DNA of 64,000 nt from an uncultured Spirochaetota bacterium. Its GTDB lineage: Bacteria; Spirochaetota; Spirochaetia; SZUA-6; Fen-1364. The notes beneath the pieces are model-generated. The model did not search any database and was not told where the DNA came from. It was given only the letters and a program-made list of their open reading frames with translations. Positions 41,241 through 57,439 of the stretch are shown piece after piece; positions within the stretch are counted from its first letter, which is position 1; every line of letters begins with the position of its first letter. Both the position numbers and the translations under genes were made by a program. Location: positions 192,001 through 256,000 of the forward strand of contig CAWAHW010000007.1 of assembly GCA_963781885.1 (NCBI GenBank), given 5' to 3'.

Positions 41241-43157
41241 TCAGGCGCCGTCGCGCGCGTCCAACATCTCCCTCACTTTCCGCAGGAAATCTTCGCGGCG
41301 GAAGGGCTTGGAGAGGAACTCCCCGCCGACGGATTGCGAGACGGAATTGTCCACCGTGCTTCGCGCGTAGCCGGAGACGAGCAGCGTCTTCAGGTGCGGA
41401 AACTTCGCTTCGATTGCCCGCGCGAGCTCGCGTCCGCCCATTCGCGGCATCACCGCGTCGGTGATCACGAGGGCGAGCGTTCCCGCGCGTCGCTCGGCGA
41501 CCTGCAATCCCTTCTCCCCGTCCTCCGCCTCTTCCACCTGGTATCCGACGGACCGCAGCGCCCTGACCATGAGCATCCGCACCTCGGGATCGTCCTCCAC
41601 CACCAGAAGGGTTTCCGTCCCTCCCCGCGGCGCGGCGCGGCCGCCCTCCGGCGTCCGTGATTCTGGTACACCGTCGACGTGCGGGAGGTGGATCGAGAAG
41701 CAGGCCCCCTTCCCCGGCTCGCTCTCCACGGTGATGAAACCCCCGCATTGCTGCACGATGCCGTACACGGTGGAAAGCCCCAGCCCCGTTCCCCGTGCCC
41801 TGCGCCTTTCGTCGTGAAGAACGGGTCGAATATCAGCGGAAGGATCTCTTTCGCGATGCCGATGCCGGAGTCGCGCACCGCAATGACGGCGTAGCGCCCG
41901 GCTTTCGCCTCCGGCCGCGCCTGCGCCTCGGCCTCAGTGAGGGTGCGATTGGAGGTGGCGATCGAAAGCCGCCCGCCCGCCGGCATGGCGTCGCGCGCGT
42001 TGACGACGAGGTTCAGCAGGATCTGCTCGATCTGGTGCGGGTCGGCGCTGACCAGAGACAGGTTGCGGCAACGGGTGATCGTGAGCTCGATGTTCTCCCC
42101 GATCAGGCGCGTGAGCATCACCTCCATCGAACGAACGACGACGTTCACGTCGAGGATCGCCCTCTGGACGACCTGCTGCCGGCTCGAACGCCAGGAGCTG
42201 CTGGGTGAGCATCGCCGCGCGCCGGGCCGCATCCGCGACCTCCTGCACCATCACGCCCCCCTCCGTCTCCGGGGGCAGGCTGTCGCGCAGCAGCTCGCAA
42301 TACCCCGTGATGACGGCGAGAATGTTGTTGAAGTCATGCGCGATCCCGCCCGCCAGGCGGCCCACTGCCTCCATCTTCTGCGCCTGGACGAGCTGCGCTT
42401 CCAGCATCCGCCGCTGGGAGATGTCTTCCAGGAAGGCGGTGTACGAGTGGAGGGACAGGTCGCCGTTGAAGAGAGCATTGGCGTTGATCGAGGCCCAGAG
42501 CGTGCCGCCGTCCTTGCGGCGGAGCTGGGCCTCGAAGCCGTGGACGCTGCCGTGCGCCGCAAGGGCCTGGAAAAGCGCTGCATGCCGGGCGGGATCGGCG
42601 AAGAGCTGCCGGTCGACGTCCGCGATGCAGGCGACCAGCTCGCGCGGTGAGCTGTAGCCGAGCGCCTGGGCCAGGGAAGGGTTCGCCGTGCTGAGACCAG
42701 CGTCGCGCGTGAACTGGTAGATGCCCTCGACCGAGCACTCGAATATTTCCCGGTAGTTGTTCTCGATGTCCAGGAGGGCGGCCATGTTGTCCCGCATGTC
42801 GGTGATGTCGTACAGGGTGGCGAGCCCCGCCGGCGCTCCGTCGATTTCCAGGAACGCGCTGGTGAACTCCACCCAGCGCCCGGCGCCGCCTTTCGTCACG
42901 ATCTTGAACTCGTGACGCTTGCGGGGCGCGTCGACCGGCGGCGGTGCGAGCACCTTCTCCACGACCCGGGCGCGATGCTCGGGATGCACGAGGTCCGGGA
43001 AGCGCATGGCAAGGAGATCGCTCTGGGGGTAGCCCGTGAGGATTTCCGCGTTCCTGTTTGCAAAGACGAGTCTCTGCTCCTGGTAGATCACCACGGCGGC
43101 GGCGGTGGTCTCCGAGAGGACGCGGAACTTGTGCTCGATTTCCTGCAGGGCGGTCAT
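41241..43157 (-). CDS. Cytoplasmic PAS-PAS hybrid histidine kinase (HisKA-HATPase-REC), interrupted by insertions
   Basis: [19 protein letters not shown]; [10 protein letters not shown]...DPFFTTK; VYGIV...LVVEDD...TDAVMP across three frames, breaks near 42185 and 41790-41808; ATGA-coupled to pstB. Confidence 0.85.
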
Positions 43158-43912
43158 CCGAATCGGCCCGAGATGTAATCTTCGGTCCTCTTGTCCCGCG
43201 GGTTGAACAGGATCTCCTCCGTTCTTCCTATTTCCACCACCTCGCCATTCAGGAAAAACGCGATGACCTCGGAGATACGGCTCGCCTGCTGGAGGTTATG
43301 CGTGACGACGACGATCGTGTAGTTCCTCTTCAGCCCGTCGATGAGATCCTCGACCTTTGTCGTGGATACCGGGTCGAGCGCCGAGCTGGGCTCGTCCATG
43401 AGGATGACGTCCGGCTCCACGGCGAGCAGGCGCGCGATGCACAGGCGCTGCTGCTGTCCGCCCGACAGGCCCAGCGCGGGCTTGTGGAGCCGGTCCTTCA
43501 CCTCCTCCCAGAGCGCGGCGCGCCGGAGGCTCTCCTCCACGATGGCCGCGACCTCCGTCTTCTTGCGGATGCCGTGGACGCGCGGCCCGTAGGCCACGTT
43601 GTCGAAGACCGTCATGGGAAAGGGGTTGGGCTTCTGGAAGACCATGCCGATCCTCTTCCGCAGCTCGATCACGTCGCACTCGCCGTAGATGTCCGCCCCG
43701 TCGTAGAGGACGCGCCCCTCCACGGTGACCGCGGGAATCAGGTCGATCATGCGGTTGATCGTCTTCAGGAAGCTCGTCTTGCCGCATCCCGAGGGGCCGA
43801 TCAGCGCGGTCACCTGGTGGGCGAGCATCTCGATGCTCACGTGGGAGAGAGCCGCCGCATCGCCGTAGGAGAGGGAGAGGTTTTCCGTGCGAAGCTTAAC
43901 GTGACCTTCCAT
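43154..43912 (-). CDS. pstB: Phosphate ABC transporter ATPase
   Basis: [37 protein letters not shown]. Confidence 0.96.
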
Positions 43913-47401: not shown

Positions 47402-47758
47402 CTAATGCGCAGGCTGCTGCCCGCCCGCCACGGATTCGATTGCTTCGAGCTCGTTGGAGCTGATCGGCAGGAAGCCGACGAGCTTCGTGAGCTCCAGGAC
47501 GCGCATCACGGGCTTCGCGACGTTCACGAGCCGAAACGACCTGCCCTCCTGCGCGAGCATGGCGTTGACCGACATCAGGGCGCCGACGCCGCTGGAGTCG
47601 ATGTAGGTCGCCTTCTTCAGGCTCAGGATGAAGATGTGGACATGCTTTTCGATCATGCCGCGCACCACGTCCTTCAGCCGGTAGGCGTTGTACAGGTCGA
47701 TCTCGCCGGAGACGTCGATGATGTAGTTCTGCTCGAATTTCCTTATCTTGATGTCCAT
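47402..47758 (-). CDS. STAS anti-sigma factor antagonist, first gene of the pst operon
   Basis: VSGEIDLYNA, YIDSSGVGAL (phosphoacceptor Ser), VLELTKL. Confidence 0.92.
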   Translation of the reverse strand: MDIKIRKFEQNYIIDVSGEIDLYNAYRLKDVVRGMIEKHVHIFILSLKKATYIDSSGVGALMSVNAMLAQEGRSFRLVNVAKPVMRVLELTKLVGFLPISSNELEAIESVAGGQQPAH

Positions 47759-47803
47759 GGCGTCCTCTCTGTGGTGGATACCGGGGCGCATTGCAGAGCG
47801 CGA

Positions 47804-47879
47804 GTGTTAAGGGCGTATGAAAAAAGAACGACTATTCGGTGAATCCGTGCGGGCGCACCAGTTAACACAATATTCATGA
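47804..47879. promoter_or_regulatory. Divergent Pho-box-like repeats
   Basis: Minus strand TTCATAC-N4-TTAACAC (47821..47804); plus strand TTAACAC-N4-TTCATGA (47862..47879). Confidence 0.6.
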
Positions 47880-49177
47880 GCGATTCGTCGTTTCTTAATC
47901 TTTTTCGGGGAATGTCGACGGAAATGATAGAGCCCGTATTCACGGCCGCCGATCTGGATCTCACTGCGCTGGAGACGCCGGAAGAAGTCCCCGAGGAAAC
48001 GAGCATCGACGACCCGCGGCGCATCCTCCATCGGGCTCCCGGGTCCCACCGCCAGGGGGAGGTCATCGCGAAGCTCGCGAGCAGCCGCTACTACGTGCGC
48101 GCGACCGACGACATCGAGGCGCTCGCCGCAGCCATGGACAAGGCGCCGGGGCTCATCGCGGTCGGCGTCGTCGCGGAGACGGGCACGCCGCGCGGGCTCA
48201 TCCTCCGGCGCGAGCTATTCGACCTGCTGGGAAAGCCCTACGGGAGGGAGTTCTACAAGAAGAAGCCCGTTTCCGCGGTCATGCAGACCGCACGCGCGTT
48301 CGGCGACGACACGAGCATCATCGGCGTCGCCGAATCGTTGAAGGAGGAGGTCCGTCAGCTCGACGATACCTATTACCTGCTCGTCGACGGCGCGGGAAGT
48401 TTCAGCGGCATCTTCACGAGCAAGCATCTGCTCATCTACCTCTCGGACACAACCGCGCGGGATATCGCGCTGGCGCAGAGGCTGCAGGCCGCCATCGTGC
48501 GCGAAAGCTTCCGGTTCGAGGATCCGCGCTGCACGATCCTGTGCACATCCCGGATGGCGAAGGAAGTGGGCGGCGACTTCTACACCGTCAAGCGGCTGGA
48601 CGCGCACCGCGTGCTCATGTGCATCTGCGACGTCTCCGGCAAGGGCATCGCGGCCTCCCTCATCACGGCTGTCCTGGGAGGCATCTTCAACACCTATACC
48701 GGCACGCATTCTCTGCAGCCCTTTCTCCGCAGCCTCAACGCGTACCTGTTCGAGACGTTCCGTCTGGACTACTTCGTCACCGGCGTCTTCATGGAGCTGG
48801 ACCTGCGCACGGGACACGCCACGATCTGCGACATGGGGCACTCGTTCGTCCTCGTGCGGGAAAAGACGACCCTGTTTCGTTTGGGCAGGAAAACGTCGAA
48901 TCCGCCGCTCGGGATCGTGGCGGACCTTTCACCGGTCGTGAGCAGCTATTGCTTCCCGAAAGACGGGCTTGCCATCCTTTTCACCGACGGGGTCGTGGAG
49001 CAGACCAGCCGCCGGGGGGCCGAGTACTCACAGGCACGGCTCTGGGGCCTCCTGAAGCGCCACGCCGCCGATTCGCCGGCCGCCCTCGGGGAGGCGCTCA
49101 CGGCGGACTTCGACTCTTTCAAAGGCGATCAGCCGCAGAACGACGACGTGACGTTCATGATCATGAAGTACAACTGA
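47876..49177 (+). CDS. CBS-pair plus SpoIIE/PP2C phosphatase
   Basis: GLILRRELF...YGREFYKKKPVSAVM CBS-like region; AQRLQ, VGGDFY, DVSGKG, FVTG, FTDGVVE, QNDDVT. Confidence 0.88.
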   Translation: MSDSSFLNLFRGMSTEMIEPVFTAADLDLTALETPEEVPEETSIDDPRRILHRAPGSHRQGEVIAKLASSRYYVRATDDIEALAAAMDKAPGLIAVGVVAETGTPRGLILRRELFDLLGKPYGREFYKKKPVSAVMQTARAFGDDTSIIGVAESLKEEVRQLDDTYYLLVDGAGSFSGIFTSKHLLIYLSDTTARDIALAQRLQAAIVRESFRFEDPRCTILCTSRMAKEVGGDFYTVKRLDAHRVLMCICDVSGKGIAASLITAVLGGIFNTYTGTHSLQPFLRSLNAYLFETFRLDYFVTGVFMELDLRTGHATICDMGHSFVLVREKTTLFRLGRKTSNPPLGIVADLSPVVSSYCFPKDGLAILFTDGVVEQTSRRGAEYSQARLWGLLKRHAADSPAALGEALTADFDSFKGDQPQNDDVTFMIMKYN

Positions 49178-49213
49178 GAGGCCCGGCGGGAGCCGCGCCC
49201 GGTTGCGGCGGCG

Positions 49214-49903
49214 TCAGGCGCTCGCGGATCCTGCCGCGCCCGCCTCGGCCGTGGCGCCGGGGGACTCCAGCTTCAACGTGGCCACCGTCTCCGCGTTCGA
49301 GATGCGGATGGAAAAGGCGTCCTGCCCGAAACCAAGACTCTTGAGCATGAACATCATCATGACGAGACCCAGCCCGGCTCCCTCGGTTCCGTCCTCGATG
49401 CTCGTGAATGCCTCCGCAAAGCAGGTGTACTGCCGCGCGACGGCGATCTTCTCCGTAATCCGCGCTTCCTCGGCCGCCGTGAGCGTCACATTGTTGCGCA
49501 CGCTGATGCGCACGCCGTTCCTGAGCTTGCGGAACTGGAACTTCACGTACAGCCCCGCTTTTTTCAGCTTTTCAAGGTACTGGTCGATATGCTCCGTGGT
49601 CTCACGCTTGAAACCCTTCATGCCGCGGGCGTAGTCGCGCGCATCCGCGATGTCGAGCTTGTTCTCAAGGAAATAGAGACGTTTCGTATTCGCCTTCTTG
49701 GCGTTTCCCGCCAGCTCGTGAACGCAATAGCTGAGCTTGTCCTTGATGGCGATCATGCCGGAGGCATCGAGGAAGGCGCCGAGGATGCGGTCGATATGGA
49801 CCCGCTCGTACGGCAGGTACGTCGTCGTCCTGAGCGTGAGAGTCTTCGACTGGGCGATCGCCTCGTGAACGCTGTCCCACAGAGCCCGCCTTCCGCTCGG
49901 CAT
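49214..49903 (-). CDS. Stand-alone HATPase (anti-sigma/Ser kinase-like)
   Basis: HELAGNAKKAN N-box, ISVRNN, EGAGLGL G-box; no HisKA domain. Confidence 0.7.
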   Translation of the reverse strand: MPSGRRALWDSVHEAIAQSKTLTLRTTTYLPYERVHIDRILGAFLDASGMIAIKDKLSYCVHELAGNAKKANTKRLYFLENKLDIADARDYARGMKGFKRETTEHIDQYLEKLKKAGLYVKFQFRKLRNGVRISVRNNVTLTAAEEARITEKIAVARQYTCFAEAFTSIEDGTEGAGLGLVMMMFMLKSLGFGQDAFSIRISNAETVATLKLESPGATAEAGAAGSASA

Positions 49904-50123: not shown

Positions 50124-50752
50124 TCAGGCGCGGGCCGTTTCGTTCATCGCATATTCGTATTTGCTCAGGGGCTCGGGTTCCAGGGTGACGATCGCGGCCG
50201 AGGCTGGCGGCGAAAACGGGCAGGCAGGACGCGTCGGCTCCCGGGCAGCAGCTCCGCCTCGAGGATCCGGTGCGGCCGGTGGCGATGCCTACGGTAATCC
50301 ACGACGCGAAACGAATCGAGACTCAATTCCAGGAGATTGCGGCCCTCTGCCGACACGATGCGCTGCCGGCGAACCTGGCGGATGCGAAACAGAACGACCA
50401 GCGCCCTGCCGCGCGCGTGTTCGTCGACACGACGCCGCAGGGAGGCGGGCCACGCGCGCTGCCCGGGGGAATCGATTTCTTCCTGCAATTCCTCGCGGTC
50501 GTGGATGCTGCCGGTGTCGTTGGAGAGCGACTTCAGCGCAAGCTGCATTTTTTCGCCCCTACGCACCCGGCATGCCCAGCCCGCGCTTTGAAGGTCGCCG
50601 GCGGTCGTGTCGTAGTACGCGTCCTCGACGCGCACGACGCGTGCAGGGCCGAGGGAGAAGTCTCCAACCCGCCGGAGCCTTGCCAGGACGGCCATCGTTC
50701 TTGCGTCGGGGATCTTCAGCTTGAGCTCGATCTCCCTCGTGGGCTTGCTCAT
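50124..50752 (-). CDS. CYTH domain protein, 3' end disrupted by insertions
   Basis: EIELKL, DAYYDT, RVR, ELSLD, EAEL; the conserved PEPLSKYE.A* tail lies in another frame ending at 50124. Confidence 0.8.
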
Positions 50753-50758
50753 TCCAGA

Positions 50759-50830
50759 ATGGTAGCGTGAATGCAGCTTCGAGGCAAGTGTTAAGAATCT
50801 GTTAATTCCTTCCTTAGCAAGGATTTACTA
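50759..50830. promoter_or_regulatory. Pho-box-like sites and promoter between CYTH and ppx
   Basis: Minus strand TTAACAG-N4-TTAACAC (50805..50788) abutting TTGCCT-17-TACCAT; plus strand TTAGCAA-N4-TTACTAG. Confidence 0.65.
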
Positions 50831-52429
50831 GTGACACCGGGCCCATGGACGGTTTATCATGCGTCTGTGGGCGGGACAGAGAAAGCGGCGAAGCTCCCCG
50901 ATTTCCCATTCAAAGTCGCGGCAATCGACATAGGCTCGAACGCTCTGCGCTTCAGCGTCGCGGAGTTCGCCGACGTCGACCGCTTCTCCGTCGTGGAGAC
51001 GGGACGCCAGGCCCTCCGGCTCGGGCATGACGTCTTTCATACCGGGAAGCTCACCGACGAGACGCTCCTGGCAGCGGTTCAGGGGCTGAAGAGTTTTTCG
51101 CAGCGTATCGCGGAGCTCGGCGCGCAGATGTCCGTTGCCATTGCAACGAGCGCCATCCGGGAAAGCGGGAATCAGACTGCATTCCTGCGCATGGTGGACG
51201 AAAAGGCGGGCGTCAAGGTCAAGGTCATCACGGGAAGCGAAGAGGCGCGCCTTGTATACCTGGCAGTGAAGAGCCGCATCCCGCTCGGTGACGACCCGTG
51301 GGTGCTCGTGGAGCTGGGCGGCGGGAGTGTCGAGGTTTCCTTCGCAAACGCGCAGGGTATCCTCTGGAGCGAATCGCACACCATGGGTTCCGTGCGGCTC
51401 TTGGAGGAGCTCACCGGCGATGCGGACGAGCCGGGCCGGTTTGCGCGCCTGCTCACGGAGTACGTGGCGACGCTCCACATTCCGCCCGGCCTGGCCAATC
51501 AGAGGCCGGCCGGCTTCGTCGCAACGGGCGGCAACATCGAATCACTCGCGCGCCTGGCCGCCTGTGAAGAGCGGGAGGACGGGGTGCGGGCCCTGCCCCT
51601 CACGGCGCTGAAAGCGAACATCGTCGCCCTGTCGCGTCTCTCTTTCCGTCAGCGGATGGAGCAGCTCGACCTCCGTGAGGATCGCGCCGACGTCATCCTT
51701 CCGGCCGCGCTGGTCTATGCGCGGCTTGCCGAGCTCGCGCGGGCGGAGACGATCCTCGTGCCGGCCGTGGGAATCAGGGAGGGGCTCATGATCGATCTCG
51801 TGGCAAATCTCTTCCACCACAAGCAGTCCCAGGATTCGCAGAGCCACCTGACCTATGACGCCGCCCTTGCGCTCGGACGCCGCTACCAGTTCGAGGAGGC
51901 GCATGCCGTGCAGGTCTGCCGGCTCGCGCTTTCCCTTTTCGACCAGCTCACGACGCTTCATGAGCTGGGCGAAGAGGAGCGGCGCATGCTCCTGGCCGCG
52001 GCGCTCCTCCACGACACCGGCTTCTACATCAGCTACCAGAGGCATCACAAGCACTCGCAGTACCTGATCACGCAGTCGGAGCTGCCGGGGTTTTCCTCCC
52101 AGGACATGCAGCTCATCGGCATGGTGGCCCGCTACCATCGCAAGAGCGAGCCATCGGACCGGCACGTGGATTACAGCGCGCTGTCGGCGGAGGACCGCAT
52201 GCGCGTGAGCCGGCTCGCCGCGATCATCCGCATCGCGGATGCCCTTGACCGCGAGCATCTGCAGAAGGTGAGGGGCATCCGCCTGGAGATCGGGCCGCAG
52301 ACCGTGGTCGTCCACGTCGATTGCTCGGGCGATTTCCTTCTGGAAACCTGGGGCGTGCAGAAGAAGGCCGACCTCTTCGGCAGGGAATTTCATCGCGGGA
52401 TACGGCTCGCGCTGGAGGGGAGCTCCTGA
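50831..52429 (+). CDS. ppx: Exopolyphosphatase Ppx/GppA with HD domain; start uncertain
   Basis: AIDIGSNALR, ATSAIRE, GSEEAR, ELGGGSVE, RADVI, GIREG, LLHDTG..HHKHS. Confidence 0.92.
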   Translation: MTPGPWTVYHASVGGTEKAAKLPDFPFKVAAIDIGSNALRFSVAEFADVDRFSVVETGRQALRLGHDVFHTGKLTDETLLAAVQGLKSFSQRIAELGAQMSVAIATSAIRESGNQTAFLRMVDEKAGVKVKVITGSEEARLVYLAVKSRIPLGDDPWVLVELGGGSVEVSFANAQGILWSESHTMGSVRLLEELTGDADEPGRFARLLTEYVATLHIPPGLANQRPAGFVATGGNIESLARLAACEEREDGVRALPLTALKANIVALSRLSFRQRMEQLDLREDRADVILPAALVYARLAELARAETILVPAVGIREGLMIDLVANLFHHKQSQDSQSHLTYDAALALGRRYQFEEAHAVQVCRLALSLFDQLTTLHELGEEERRMLLAAALLHDTGFYISYQRHHKHSQYLITQSELPGFSSQDMQLIGMVARYHRKSEPSDRHVDYSALSAEDRMRVSRLAAIIRIADALDREHLQKVRGIRLEIGPQTVVVHVDCSGDFLLETWGVQKKADLFGREFHRGIRLALEGSS

Positions 52430-53106
52430 TGGACGAAAAGGGCATCACCGGAAAGCTCATCGCCGTGGAGGGCCTCGACGGCTCCGGCAAGACCACGCAG
52501 ATCTATCTTGTCTACCAGTGGCTCCTCGGGCTGGGGTGCAAGGTCTTCTACTCGGAGTGGAACTCGAGCGAGATCGTGAAGGGCGCGACGAAACGCGGGA
52601 AGAAGAAGCAGCTCCTCACGCCCACGACTTTCAGCCTCATCCACGCCACCGATTTCGCCGACCGCTACGAGCGGCAGATCCTGCCGATGCTGAAGGGCGG
52701 CTACATCGTGCTGTGCGACCGCTACGCGTACACCGCTTACGCGCGCGATTCGGTGCGGGGGTGCGACCCGGCGTGGCTGCGCGAGATGTACAGTTTTGCG
52801 ATCCGGCCCGACATCGTCTTCTATTTCCAGGTGCCGCTGGAGATCGCCATCAACAGGATCCTCGCCGGCCGGGCCGAGCTGAAATACTTCGAGGCGGGCA
52901 TGGACCTGCACCTGTCGCCCGACATCAAGGAAAGCTTCCGCCTTTTCCAGCGCATGGTGAAGAACGCCTATGACGGGATGGTGGACGAACAGGGCTTCTC
53001 GGTGATCGACGCGACGAAGAGCATCCCGGATCAGCAGGAGGTCGTGCGCTCCTCCATCCTGGAGCGCATCGATCTCGCGCGGTATCGGGCCAAGGTGAGA
53101 CAATGA
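52429..53106 (+). CDS. Thymidylate-kinase-like P-loop kinase A
   Basis: IAVEGLDGSGKTTQ, SEWNSS, DFADR, LCDRY, YFEAGMD. Confidence 0.85.
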   Translation: MDEKGITGKLIAVEGLDGSGKTTQIYLVYQWLLGLGCKVFYSEWNSSEIVKGATKRGKKKQLLTPTTFSLIHATDFADRYERQILPMLKGGYIVLCDRYAYTAYARDSVRGCDPAWLREMYSFAIRPDIVFYFQVPLEIAINRILAGRAELKYFEAGMDLHLSPDIKESFRLFQRMVKNAYDGMVDEQGFSVIDATKSIPDQQEVVRSSILERIDLARYRAKVRQ

Positions 53107-53895
53107 ACAAGAAGAGGTGCTACGGCAGGCCCCCCGTGGGGGTGGACCTCGCCCAGCTTTCCGGGGCGCTCATCGTGATCGAGGGGCAGGACTCCTCGGG
53201 CCGGTCCACGCAGATCCGCGCGCTCTCCTCGTGGCTGGAGCAGCAGGGCTACGCGGTGGAGCAGGTCGGGCTTCGGCGCTCGGAGCTCGTCACGCCGGAG
53301 CTGGACCGCGCGAAGCAGGGCAACATTCTTTCCCCGCGCACGATGAGCCTCTTTTACGCCACCGACTTCTACGACCAGCTGGAGAACCGGATAGTGCCGG
53401 CGCTGCGCGCGGGATACATCGTCCTGGCCGACCGCTACATCCCCACCCTGGTGGCGCGCGACCTGGTGCGGCGCGGCAACCAGGAATGGCTGGACTCGCT
53501 GTACTCCATGGCGATCGTGCCCGGACGCGGTCTATTTCATCTCCGCCTCCATCGGCAGTCTCGTGGAGAGGAAGCTTTCCTTCCAGTACAACCTCGACTA
53601 CTGGGAGTCGGGCATGGACCTCGGCCTCGCTCCCGACTGGTACGGCAGCTACGTGAGCTACCAGCGCAAGCTGAAACAGGTCTTCGTGCAACTGCAGAAG
53701 CGCTACGGCTACGAGGCCATCGACGGCAACAGGTCGATCGCCGCGGTCCAGCGGGATCTTCGTGCACGGGTGAGCGCAAAGTTGAAGGAGGTATACCCCA
53801 GTGGCCAGAGACAAGCCGATGGAGCGGAACGAGAGGGTGGAGGAGCTGCTGCAGGAGCTGCAGGGGCTGCAGGCGTCGTGGAAGGAAATTCTTGA
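53103..53895 (+). CDS. Thymidylate-kinase-like kinase B (variant P-loop), 1-nt insertion near 53521
   Basis: IEGQDSSGRSTQ, LFYATDFYDQLE, LADRY; continues in the other frame as PDAVYF...LDYWESGMDLGL. Confidence 0.8.
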
Positions 53896-54124
53896 GCGCT
53901 ACACGCTGAATGTCCGGTCGCGCTTCGCGGAGATCGCCACAGCGGTCGCCGGCCCTCCCACGGAGGAGGAGACGCACGTGCCCCTCTCGAAGAAGCAGCT
54001 CGACCTGATGCTGCTGGAGCTCCGCACGATCAAGCTCAAGCCCGACAAGGGGAGGGGCAAGGACCTCGCGCGGATCGAGAAGGCACTCGATGACCTCCTG
54101 GCAGCGCATGGCGAGCGCGCCTGA
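53801..54124 (+). CDS. Small helical hypothetical protein with a basic KLKPDKGRGKDL motif
   Basis: GGAGG RBS plus GTG; embedded in the operon. Confidence 0.65.
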   Translation: MARDKPMERNERVEELLQELQGLQASWKEILERYTLNVRSRFAEIATAVAGPPTEEETHVPLSKKQLDLMLLELRTIKLKPDKGRGKDLARIEKALDDLLAAHGERA

Positions 54125-55907
54125 AAAGCCGGCCGAATCCTTCCTGATGCCTCCTCTCCAAACCGGGGAGGAGCTTCTCTCGGCGCTGGAGCGGCTGGGT
54201 TATGCGCCGCGCCCGCTCCGCCGCCTGGTCTCCACCTACACGTACCGGGACACGCGCGACGGCGCGCTGCGCGCGGCCGGCCTTGAGCTGCGCCTGCACG
54301 CGGAAGGCGCGCGCTGGCAGCTCCTGGACCGCGGCATGGTCAGCGCGCAGCGCAAGGCTGCCGACTCCACGGACGATGTGCCGGGCGCGGGTCGGCTGGG
54401 GCTCCGCCTGCGCGCCCTTGCCGGCGGCCGGCCCCTGCTTTCCCAGCTTTCGGCCGCCTGCACGGAGACGGTCCATCTCCTTTCGGGTCCCTCGTCGCGG
54501 CCCATGTCGCTCTCCGTCCAGGAGTGGGAGTTCAGCGATCTGCCGGAGAGGAACCATCGCGTGCGCTGCCGCGTGGCGCGCATCGTTTCCTCGCGCGGCG
54601 CGCGCGTCGACATCGACTATCTTGCCGCCCTCCTGCACCGCCATCTCTCCCTCGTGCCGACCCGCACGGGCATCTTCGAGACCGGTCTCGGCCTTCTGGA
54701 GGCACCGCTGCCGGGCGCCGCGGTGCCCGCGACGTATCGACTGAACCGGCGCGACACGCGCGTCACCTCCGCGGCGAAGCTCCTTTCCGCCCAGGCATGG
54801 GCCATGCGGGTGAACACCGCGGGCACCCGTCACGACCGCGACATCGAGTACCTCCATAACCTGCGCGTCGCCACTCGTCGGGCGCGCTTCCTCGTGCGGC
54901 TCTTTCACGACGTGCTGGGCGCTTCACGGGCCGCGGCCCTGCGTGGCGAGCTTTCATGGATCGCGGGGATGCTGGGAGTCGTGCGGGACCTCGACGTTCT
55001 GCTGCAGAATCTGCCCGCGCAGCTCGCCGAGGTCGAGGCTCCGCCGGAGGCCGCGGCCGAGGCGATACGCCTCCTCCGTGCGCGACGGGGCGACGCGTTT
55101 GGACCGATGGTGGCCGCACTTGTTTCGGGCCGGTATCGCGCGCTTCTCATGGACCTGGCGGCGCCGTTGCCGGAGCCTCGCCGCGCCGGCACGGAGGAGG
55201 AGGCAGGAGGGGCGCGGCTGGTCGATTTCGCCCGCCGCCAGATCCGCCGCACGTCCCGACGACTGCTCGCCCTGGGCTCCGGGATAACGAGCGATCCCTC
55301 GCGCGCCGCTGCCCTTGCACCGTCCACGCTCCACCGTGCCCGCATCCTCTTCAAGAGGCTGCGTTACACGTGCGAGTTTTTCCGCCCCGTCCTGGGCGAC
55401 GACATGCGCGGCGCTCTGCGGCGCCTCGTCGCCTGCCAGGACTGCCTGGGCGCGCACCAGGACGCGGTGTCGGCGCTGCGAGCGTTCGAGCGAATTGCGC
55501 GGGAGTCGGACCCGGGCGCATCGCCTGCCATCTATCTCTGCCTGGGAGCGCTCATGCAGCTCCAGCGAAGAATACAGCTCCAGAAGCGCGTCGAGTTCGC
55601 CGGATTGTGGGAGAAGTTTCCGCTTCTGGCGCGCCACATGGAGCGGGGAGGAAAGGAGCCGGGGCATGCCCGTGATCGCGTTGTACAATCTGAAGGGCGG
55701 GGTGGGAAAGACGGCGGCCGCGGTCAACCTCGCGGCGCTGGCCGCCTCCGAAGGCGCAGCGTGCCTTCTGTGGGACCTGGACCCGCAGGCAGCGGCGACA
55801 TTCCACCTGCGCGGGAAGGAAGGCCTGCCGGTGCGGGGCCGCAGGATCCTCCGGAGCAGGGCGGGGGTGGGCGACCTGCCCGCGGCGACCCCGGTTCCCC
55901 GTCTTGA
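54108..55907 (+). CDS. CYTH-like plus CHAD domain protein; 3' end uncertain
   Basis: YRDT.DG.L N-terminus; LHNLRVATRRAR, LG.VRDLDV, LHRARILFKRLRY..EFF, QDCLGAHQD; the ORF tail overlaps parA. Confidence 0.85.
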   Translation: MASAPEKPAESFLMPPLQTGEELLSALERLGYAPRPLRRLVSTYTYRDTRDGALRAAGLELRLHAEGARWQLLDRGMVSAQRKAADSTDDVPGAGRLGLRLRALAGGRPLLSQLSAACTETVHLLSGPSSRPMSLSVQEWEFSDLPERNHRVRCRVARIVSSRGARVDIDYLAALLHRHLSLVPTRTGIFETGLGLLEAPLPGAAVPATYRLNRRDTRVTSAAKLLSAQAWAMRVNTAGTRHDRDIEYLHNLRVATRRARFLVRLFHDVLGASRAAALRGELSWIAGMLGVVRDLDVLLQNLPAQLAEVEAPPEAAAEAIRLLRARRGDAFGPMVAALVSGRYRALLMDLAAPLPEPRRAGTEEEAGGARLVDFARRQIRRTSRRLLALGSGITSDPSRAAALAPSTLHRARILFKRLRYTCEFFRPVLGDDMRGALRRLVACQDCLGAHQDAVSALRAFERIARESDPGASPAIYLCLGALMQLQRRIQLQKRVEFAGLWEKFPLLARHMERGGKEPGHARDRVVQSEGRGGKDGGRGQPRGAGRLRRRSVPSVGPGPAGSGDIPPAREGRPAGAGPQDPPEQGGGGRPARGDPGSPS

Positions 55908-56433
55908 TCTGCTGCCTGCGGATTTCTCCCTGCGCCGCCTGGATACCCTGCTTGCGGAGATGAAGAAGCCGCGCAGGAAGATCGCCGAGCTCCTGCGGCC
56001 TCTGCGGAAGACCTACGACGCGATATTCCTGGACTGCCCGCCGGGGATTTCGCTCGTGGCGGAGAATGTCTTTCGCGCGGCGGACCTCATCCTGGTCCCG
56101 CTGGTTCCCACGCCGCTGTGCATGCGGACGTATGAGGAGATCGTGGTCTTCTTTCGGCGCAAGGATCTACCGTCGAGAAAGATCCTCGGCTTCTTTTCCA
56201 TGGTCGAGCAGCGCAAGAAGCTGCACCGCGAGCTCATGGCGCTGTCGAGGGAACGCGATCCGCGTATCTGCGTCGCGACCATTCCCTACAGCTCGGACGT
56301 GGAAAGGCCGTCCCGCTCGGGCCGGCCGATGGTCCTCAGCAGGCCGCGCTCATATGCTGCGCAGTGCTATCGCGCACTCTGGAAGGACGTCCAAGCCGAC
56401 CTCGCGGCCGGCAAAGCGCGTCACGGGCGGTAA
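55666..56433 (+). CDS. ParA/MinD family ATPase
   Basis: YNLKGGVGKT, WDLDPQ, LDCPP, FFSMVE. Confidence 0.9.
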   Translation: MPVIALYNLKGGVGKTAAAVNLAALAASEGAACLLWDLDPQAAATFHLRGKEGLPVRGRRILRSRAGVGDLPAATPVPRLDLLPADFSLRRLDTLLAEMKKPRRKIAELLRPLRKTYDAIFLDCPPGISLVAENVFRAADLILVPLVPTPLCMRTYEEIVVFFRRKDLPSRKILGFFSMVEQRKKLHRELMALSRERDPRICVATIPYSSDVERPSRSGRPMVLSRPRSYAAQCYRALWKDVQADLAAGKARHGR

Positions 56434-56473: not shown

Positions 56474-57199
<726 letters not shown>

Positions 57200-57382
57200 T
57201 CATCCCTTTCCCTGCAGGTTGTTCTGCGACAGGTAATACAAGAGCGCTTCGTTGATCACGTGTGCATCCTTGATCCGCGGGGTGTCCCGCCCCGGGTTCT
57301 TGTTGTAGAGCTTGATGTAGCGCTCCAGCCTCTTCCAGTTCGCGGGCACGATCTCCACATGAATGGTCTTTCTCTTACCCAT
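57200..57382 (-). CDS. Small ribbon-helix-helix-like protein
   Basis: KTIHVEI-helix-loop-HVINEALLYYL; TTGCAT-17-TATCCT promoter ending 8 nt before the ATG. Confidence 0.6.
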   Translation of the reverse strand: MGKRKTIHVEIVPANWKRLERYIKLYNKNPGRDTPRIKDAHVINEALLYYLSQNNLQGKG

Positions 57383-57439
57383 GGCAATGGAGGATAGCAA
57401 GAAACTGAACGAAATGCAACACATTTTGAATAATTAAAT

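Follow-up and report, generated by a model that had tools for sequence, protein, structure and literature searches.

In a 64,000-nucleotide stretch of DNA from an uncultured Spirochaetota bacterium (GTDB lineage Bacteria; Spirochaetota; Spirochaetia; SZUA-6; Fen-1364; GenBank assembly GCA_963781885.1, contig CAWAHW010000007.1, positions 192,001 to 256,000 of the forward strand), the whole of which is here called the window, we looked at the genes lying at window positions 50,124 to 56,433. This group is most probably a phosphate-regulated polyphosphate (polyP) operon with a bacterial PPK3 as its kinase, in which the PPK3 gene pair and a small protein have replaced ppk1 in an older ppx-ppk1-(CYTH)-CHAD-ParA operon. 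A first-pass annotation, made from the sequence alone, had read the genes as a CYTH gene followed by ppx, two thymidylate kinase-like (Tmk-like) genes A and B, a small gene, a CHAD gene and parA, and the Pfam scans and translations agree with this set and order.

The two-subunit polyP kinase PPK3 was described by Höfmann et al. (J Biol Chem 2026, PMC12995831; preprint 10.1101/2024.08.28.610084). According to that paper, two 'thymidylate kinases' encoded beside ppx in Sulfolobus acidocaldarius form a heteromeric polyP kinase, where Saci_2019 (cPPK3) makes polyP from ATP and Saci_2020 (rPPK3), inactive alone, activates Saci_2019. PPK3 is described there as an alpha2-beta2 heteromer that carries out reversible ATP:polyP phosphotransfer; the S. 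acidocaldarius enzyme (SaPPK3) prefers the phosphorylation of ADP from polyP, neither subunit is a dTMP kinase, and the dTMP-binding residues are not conserved (PMC12995831).

Judged by sequence and tree, A (225 amino acids, 52429-53106, plus strand; PF02223 84 bits) and B (53103-53895, plus strand) are bacterial cPPK3 and rPPK3, respectively. Over nearly its full length A matched the S. tokodaii cPPK3 homologue 2plr/5h70 (214.6 bits, E 1.2e-62), and the next PDB sequence, the highest-scoring dTMP kinase, reached 55.2 bits; the N-terminal half of B scored 84.7 bits against 2plr and 42.4 bits against its best dTMP kinase. In a quick IQ-TREE run of 113 rows, with the canonical Tmk sequences taken from this genome and 23 relatives and no characterised Sulfolobus sequence among the rows, the pair did not cluster with true Tmk: the 24 canonical sequences split from A and B with a support of 100, and the A sequences lay on one side of a branch (support 79), as did the B sequences (94). 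The P-loops read GSGKT in A and SGRST in B, as the annotation had seen. Across the 33 sequences of the cPPK3 alignment, window included, the GSGKxT motif (G18, S19, G20, K21 and T23) and the DRY motif, with D97 and R98, were invariant. A positively charged polyP cleft is reported to be kept in cPPK3 and not in rPPK3 (PMC12995831); at one and the same place A has KGATKRGKKK and B has ELDRAKQGN.

The remaining kinase complement was consistent with this assignment. The annotation had found no ppk1 or ppk2 in the window, and no match to PPK1 (PF02503) or PPK2 (PF03976) was obtained in the genome, which is 92.55% complete and was searched less 16,000 bases. The canonical tmk that it had proposed to look for was found on contig C2 (136 bits), separate from A and B. 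The product of this gene (C2:1479029-1479514, locus L001) and the canonical Tmk of all 23 relatives fetched (L105-L127) share the P-loop E-G-L-D-G-[AS]-G-T-[TS]-T, which is without the Walker lysine. A P-loop of this kind is unusual for dTMP kinases.

The annotation had further proposed that A and B are not a housekeeping dTMP kinase but a heterodimeric polyP kinase or polyP:nucleotide phosphotransferase of an uncharacterised class. The homology to Saci_2019, Saci_2020 and 2plr and the separate canonical tmk argue for the polyP kinase function, and the published biochemistry of the homologues together with the family match makes that proposal appear correct, while the class is not new as PPK3 had already been described in the 2024 preprint and the 2026 paper (PMC12995831). 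By homology with SaPPK3, A would catalyse reversible phosphoryl transfer between ATP/ADP and polyP, and B, a paralogue presumably without catalysis of its own, would join A in a complex and make A more active. Of their partners, Ppx would trim polyP and the CHAD protein would bind it, probably on granules, and Pho-type control would place the operon under the phosphate supply along with pst and phn genes.

A probable exchange of ppk1 for PPK3 in the genus

PPK3 was found in none of 40 relatives, 20 congeners among them, at a threshold of E<=1e-20. PPK1 was present in 16 and PPK2 in 10 of the 20 congeners. Five of these (G006, G007, G009, G016 and G018) encode ppx, ppk1, CYTH (in four of the five), CHAD and ParA in the same direction, and DNA and protein comparison showed that their neighbourhoods resemble the window, with pst genes, a STAS gene and a collagen-repeat gene, as well as phnWX in G009. 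Höfmann et al. noted a resemblance between the neighbourhoods of PPK3 and PPK1 and suggested in situ replacement (PMC12995831); as the congeners keep ppk1 between the same neighbours, the present locus provides a concrete case for that idea. The window CHAD formed a clade with the five congener CHADs against 17 PPK3-linked CHADs (SH-aLRT 98.4), those of L026 and L027, two loci in Spirochaetota metagenome-assembled genomes (MAGs), included. The CHAD clade and the congener synteny together indicate that the genes which came in for ppk1, beside a native CHAD and probably a native ParA, were at the least cPPK3, rPPK3 and the small gene. This looks like an in-place swap in this lineage, and we infer its direction and mechanism, namely that the two PPK3 genes together with that for the K-P-x-K-G-R-x-K-D protein would have displaced ppk1 inside the older ppx-ppk1-(CYTH)-CHAD-ParA operon.

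The whole module from ppx to ParA, perhaps with CYTH too, might instead have been imported as a block from a PPK3-bearing lineage, having reached the same phosphate island with nothing native kept. L026 and L027 encode cPPK3, rPPK3, CHAD and ParA in order, L027 also Ppx, and both have a match to the small protein. The window A was sister to the A of L026 (support 91) and the window B to that of L030, a Spirochaetia MAG (support 99). Besides, the window Ppx is 57% identical to that of the acidobacterial PPK3 locus L025 and 45-49% to those of congeners, and a ParA tree of seven rows plus the window was ambiguous. Such an import is nevertheless unlikely, as the window CHAD groups with the congeners apart from the CHADs of L026 and L027, and the window ParA is 50% identical to those of three congeners against 47% and 44% to those of L026 and L027.

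Other species of the genus carry further variants of the locus. G014, G015 and G019 have no PPK1 match, PPK2 match or CHAD, and G005, the closest congener, is without PPK1 and CHAD and has a PPK2 fragment at a contig end (locus L024, G005:C305, 14339-14608), beside the collagen-repeat gene and at the position that ParA has in the window. As judged from these gene contents, species may differ in whether the locus carries genes of the PPK1, PPK2 or PPK3 type. In locus L022 (G009:C24) ppk1 has an internal TGA and the ppx matches fall in two pieces, which could signify a decaying PPK1 operon or assembly errors. When 300 further genomes were sampled from the phylum, 10 had PPK3, seven of them belonging to one family.

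Spread of PPK3 loci and the rPPK3 subunit

A scan of species-representative genomes with the window cPPK3 confirmed at least 579 relatives among 600 matching stretches, and the locus counts given here, out of 80 or 79, refer to the best 80 of them. These were 60-74% identical and came from Acidobacteriota, Spirochaetota, Verrucomicrobiota, Gemmatimonadota, NC10 and others, with some from Thermoplasmata and Halobacteriales. A second Tmk-like gene directly follows cPPK3 in 79 of the 80 loci, the contig ending there in the remaining one; Ppx is encoded in 45, CHAD in 22, ParA in two and CYTH in one, so that the pairing with ppx and CHAD which the annotation had suspected in other taxa does recur. 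The published PPK3 clade consists mostly of bacterial paralogues beside ppx, CHAD, sixA or pst, in genomes mostly without PPK1 and PPK2, and PPK3 was presented as mainly crenarchaeal with 'a few' bacteria (PMC12995831). The best 80 relatives found here reach across many bacterial phyla, and the database name for these genes is still dTMP kinase.

The regulatory subunit of this branch differs in its signature from the published description. Arginine replaces the Walker lysine (SGRxT) in all 32 sequences of the rPPK3 alignment, and D110, R111 and Y112 (DRY) are likewise present in 32/32. In the published rPPK3 it is the DRX motif's arginine which is reported to be replaced (PMC12995831). The rPPK3 of this branch, the few archaeal members of the set included, carries, as read from the alignment, a different mark, in which the Walker lysine has become arginine and DRY is kept.

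In the assembly B changes frame at a C run followed by GG (53519-53523, plus strand), being read at 53103-53522 and then at 53521-53895. The annotation had listed B as a Tmk-like gene; its P-loop and its pairing with A hold, and the assembly copy is frameshifted near 53520. Of 79 related loci, 78 have both halves in a single frame, the exception being a contig end inside the gene, and both halves retain the conserved residues of the family. Three runs were compared, and because their cover of 52400-54200 is patchy, with large parts having none, a single contig informs on the frameshift: this contig of 271 nucleotides, which comes from a public metagenome run on peat, spans 53471-53742 at a depth of 2.6 with 0 mismatches and one base fewer at 53520. 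A hybrid histidine kinase gene of the window (PAS, HisKA, HATPase_c and receiver domains; 41244-43295, minus strand) is spread over three overlapping frames, which likely reflects assembly indels or a broken gene. The second split gene points to assembly indels, and for the break in B an error of assembly is the likeliest cause. The breaks in B, in the histidine kinase and in the CHAD gene (below) are all read here as assembly indels, with the read support bearing on 53520 only.

It is improbable that rPPK3 is truly broken, with cPPK3 working alone at a lower homomeric activity or the operon decaying. The one-base insertion would fit such a state, as would the open frames of B and CHAD, which run unusually far, to 53895 and 55907, and the roughly 6- to 10-fold lower activity that cPPK3 alone retains in Sulfolobus (PMC12995831); against it stand the otherwise identical public contig without the extra base, the family residues conserved on both sides of the break and the other gene of the window split over three frames. 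That A and B phosphorylate nucleotides or other small molecules, have no polyP role and are linked to ppx and CHAD incidentally is very hard to believe, for although TIGR00041 (dTMP kinase) scored A slightly over its cut-off (89.7 against 83.25 bits) and no study or assay of a bacterial PPK3 enzyme was found in the literature searched, the archaeal homologue has polyP kinase and no dTMP kinase activity, dTMP-binding residues are not conserved in PPK3 (PMC12995831), a canonical tmk lies elsewhere in the genome, and Ppx and CHAD recur in the loci as counted above.

Some observations weigh against the preferred reading of a PPK3-driven operon that arose by replacement of ppk1 in place. The absence of PPK1 and PPK2 was judged on a genome that is 92.55% complete, and the activity and complex formation of the pair are deduced from homology. 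Window B has DRY where the published mark of rPPK3 is a replaced DRX arginine, the Sulfolobus rPPK3 itself lying outside our alignment; with DRY kept in 32/32 sequences, either the basis of inactivity differs or B may retain some function. The intact allele of B comes from one contig of depth 2.6. With regard to the swap, the best tree placed the window Ppx with PPK3-linked Ppx, though the AU test did not reject a congener clade (delta lnL 1.54, p 0.45), and the left edge of the swapped block is not fixed by the Ppx trees; the ParA tree is ambiguous. The stand-alone CYTH of the window, 34-37% identical to the congener CYTH genes between ppk1 and CHAD, lies on the other side and the other strand as compared with them, which does not fit a simple cassette exchange. 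Finally, G005, the nearest congener, has a genome of 69% completeness, in which the contig stops at the locus.

Partner proteins and the phosphate island

The gene after rPPK3 (53801-54124, plus strand) encodes 107 amino acids with the motif K-P-x-K-G-R-x-K-D and has no Pfam match. A hidden Markov model built from this open reading frame (ORF) and 25 tblastn sequences found a family member directly downstream of rPPK3 in 40 of the 80 PPK3 loci, and also in two PPK1-type congeners, between ppx and ppk1 in G018 and after ParA in G009. K80, G84 and D88 are the same in all 26 sequences of the alignment (A1), and K83, R85 and K87 in nearly all. When 1.84 billion cluster representatives were searched with the profile, there were 757 matches at E<=1e-3 and 501 at E<=1e-10, with lengths of 87-238 amino acids among the 150 matches listed. 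The annotation had called this a small basic protein, which is true of the family (median isoelectric point 9.9, 23 of 26 members above 8) and not of the window copy (6.15). Its AlphaFold2 model (pLDDT 89.2) has three helices (6-50, 64-76 and 86-104), and the motif falls in the loop that leads into the third. No Pfam family was found in more than two of the 26 members, Foldseek of the model against the PDB returned nothing at E<=0.001, the VIA wide structure search reached a best Z of 6.9, which is in the range common for helical models and gave no convincing fold match, the ESM Atlas gave a best score of 0.75 and no lead, and a word-based homologue search returned only three near-identical proteins. 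In a keyword search, the main text and supplementary PDF of PMC12995831 made no mention of such a gene, and the COG-based neighbourhood method used there would presumably not have picked it up.

The CHAD gene (54090-55675, plus strand; PF05235 166.8 bits) was named in the annotation as a CHAD protein, which is right but incomplete as an N-terminal CYTH/TTM-like domain is also present. The AlphaFold2 model (pLDDT 87.3) shows a helical CHAD domain behind an N-terminal TTM/CYTH-like barrel. With Foldseek it matched the polyP-bound CHAD 6qva (E 1.5e-9) and full-length YgiF, 5a60 (E 6.2e-8), and its N-terminal domain matched thiamine triphosphatase (E 3.7e-4); sequence matches of the CHAD domain were 6qv5, 6qv7 and 3e0s. 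The N-terminal domain had no Pfam family at E<=1, it is CYTH-like in fold only, and the E-x-E-x-K motif was not seen in it. In the assembly the open frame has no stop until 55907, 240 nucleotides into ParA, whereas in L019, L021, L023, L026 and L027 the homologues stop shortly ahead of where ParA begins. Since another frame has a TGA at 55673-55675, an error of one base may have occurred in the run of G near 55661-55664.

The last gene of the operon (55666-56433, plus strand) encodes a ParA/MinD-type ATPase of 255 amino acids (PF13614 104.7 bits) with the deviant Walker A KGGVGKT; NF041546 scored 87.2 bits, under its cut-off of 180. It was described as an orphan and indeed no ParB is encoded in the window, the ParB matches of the genome lying only on C1 and C4; the ParA encoded next to the ParB of contig C1 is 28% identical to the window ParA. 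ParA follows CHAD in all five congeners fetched and in the Spirochaetota PPK3 loci L026 and L027. Among ParA relatives elsewhere in the phylum, CHAD is upstream in three of 20 loci, two of which are L026 and L027, and a metagenome scan with ParA gave one distant locus only. Orphan ParA/MinD proteins position cellular cargo, such as McdA for carboxysomes and ParC/PpfA for chemoreceptor arrays. Among the literature titles and abstract beginnings searched, no report of a ParA for polyP granules was found; we hypothesise that this ParA plays a role in positioning them, and the CHAD-ParA gene pair could bear on granule placement in cells. In other families of the phylum, ParA relatives (L134-L142) are preceded by ORFs of about 100-140 amino acids in which no Pfam family reached its cut-off, and these might be adaptor proteins of their own.

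Three points do not appear in the parts of PMC12995831 available to us: the small protein after rPPK3, the Walker lysine-to-arginine change with DRY kept, and the CHAD-ParA pair. We tentatively propose, as a possibility rather than an expectation, that polyP kinase operons, mostly of PPK3 and occasionally of PPK1 type, may have in the small protein a third component not described before, whose target could be the kinase or the end of the polyP chain, that the TTM-CHAD protein and the translationally coupled ParB-less ParA may position or partition polyP granules, and that the locus would document a recent in-place exchange of ppk1 for PPK3 within one genus.

The first gene of the operon is ppx/gppA (50831-52429, plus strand), coding for 532 amino acids if it begins at the GTG at 50831, this start being uncertain. 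Its product has Ppx-GppA domains I/II and the HD-like domain III (PF02541 131.4 bits, PF21447 104.8 bits). TIGR03706 scored 196.8 bits, under its cut-off of 307, and this score therefore does not settle Ppx versus GppA specificity. The stand-alone CYTH gene (50165-50752, minus strand, 195 amino acids; PF01928 43 bits) is divergent from ppx, as the annotation had stated, and its CYTH domain carries an N-terminal E-x-E-x-K type motif (EIELK). The tight coupling claimed for the operon is borne out by the overlaps between its genes: the ppx stop and the A start have one base in common (TGATG), the A stop and the B start overlap as ATGA, and B, the 107-residue ORF and the CHAD gene show mutual overlaps longer than those upstream.

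The module lies inside a phosphate island, with pstSCAB upstream and phnWX, phnGHIJ (C-P lyase) and ABC ATPases downstream. Pho-box-like repeats had been noticed between CYTH and ppx, and an exact direct repeat TGTTAA-N5-TGTTAA with an 11-bp period is found there (50789-50805, plus strand). With up to two mismatches the pattern has five matches in the window against 0.10 expected, the other four being at 47805, 49960, 59454 and 59499 (minus strand). All five sites are intergenic; they precede the STAS-pst operon, a 229-amino-acid ORF and ppx, and two lie in the divergent phnX/phnG region. The repeat pattern fits a Pho-type regulon motif, and as ppx, pst and phn have it in their promoters, the operon would be controlled by the supply of phosphate. 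A scan of the locus for promoters and terminators gave counts no better than shuffled sequence.

Between pst and the polyP operon (47402-49903) are encoded a STAS protein, a phosphatase of the SpoIIE type that matches CBS weakly, and the Pfam-less 229-amino-acid ORF, a set that resembles a partner-switching system and is flanked by the Pho-box-like sites at 47805 and 49960. Beyond ParA, within 56474-57424 (minus strand), lie an ORF with collagen triple-helix repeats (PF01391 39.6 bits) and two tandem small paralogous ORFs without Pfam match (56928-57203 and 57200-57424), the first of which overlaps the collagen ORF in another frame.

Comparison with known systems

The window shares with the S. 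acidocaldarius operon (sixA-ppx-saci_2019-saci_2020-CHAD; PMC12995831) the order ppx, catalytic and regulatory Tmk-like genes, CHAD. The two are also alike in having a canonical dTMP kinase elsewhere in the genome, a host without PPK1 or PPK2 match and a catalytic subunit with Walker A and DRY intact. They differ in that the window host is bacterial (Spirochaetota), and general Pfam scans of the operon ORFs turned up no sixA homologue. On the window side, moreover, the 107-amino-acid protein stands between rPPK3 and CHAD, the CHAD protein includes a fused TTM-like domain, ParA comes last and CYTH is divergent. The regulatory subunits differ as well, the DRX arginine being reported as replaced in rPPK3 (PMC12995831), whereas the window rPPK3 keeps DRY and has arginine at the Walker lysine.

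The model of the window CHAD protein aligns with full-length E. coli YgiF (5a60, E 6.2e-8) and resembles the CHAD of the Chlorobium CHAD-polyP complex (6qva, E 1.5e-9, TM 0.82 on the target). From CYTH proteins it differs in an N-terminal domain that has diverged past the reach of Pfam CYTH and is without the E-x-E-x-K seen in the stand-alone CYTH. The window ParA, like the cargo-positioning ATPases of the ParA/MinD type, has KGGVGKT, is without ParB and is encoded beside a putative cargo-binding protein; on the side of differences, a ParA for polyP granules was not named in the titles and abstract beginnings searched, and CHAD stands beside only three of 20 relatives elsewhere in the phylum. 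The classical ppx-ppk1 operon of the congeners has the same partners (ppx, CYTH, TTM-CHAD and ParA) in the same neighbourhood (pst, STAS, collagen-like gene and phnWX). The window departs from it in two respects: CYTH lies upstream on the other strand, and in place of the ppk1 of about 2.1 kb stand cPPK3, rPPK3 and the small protein.

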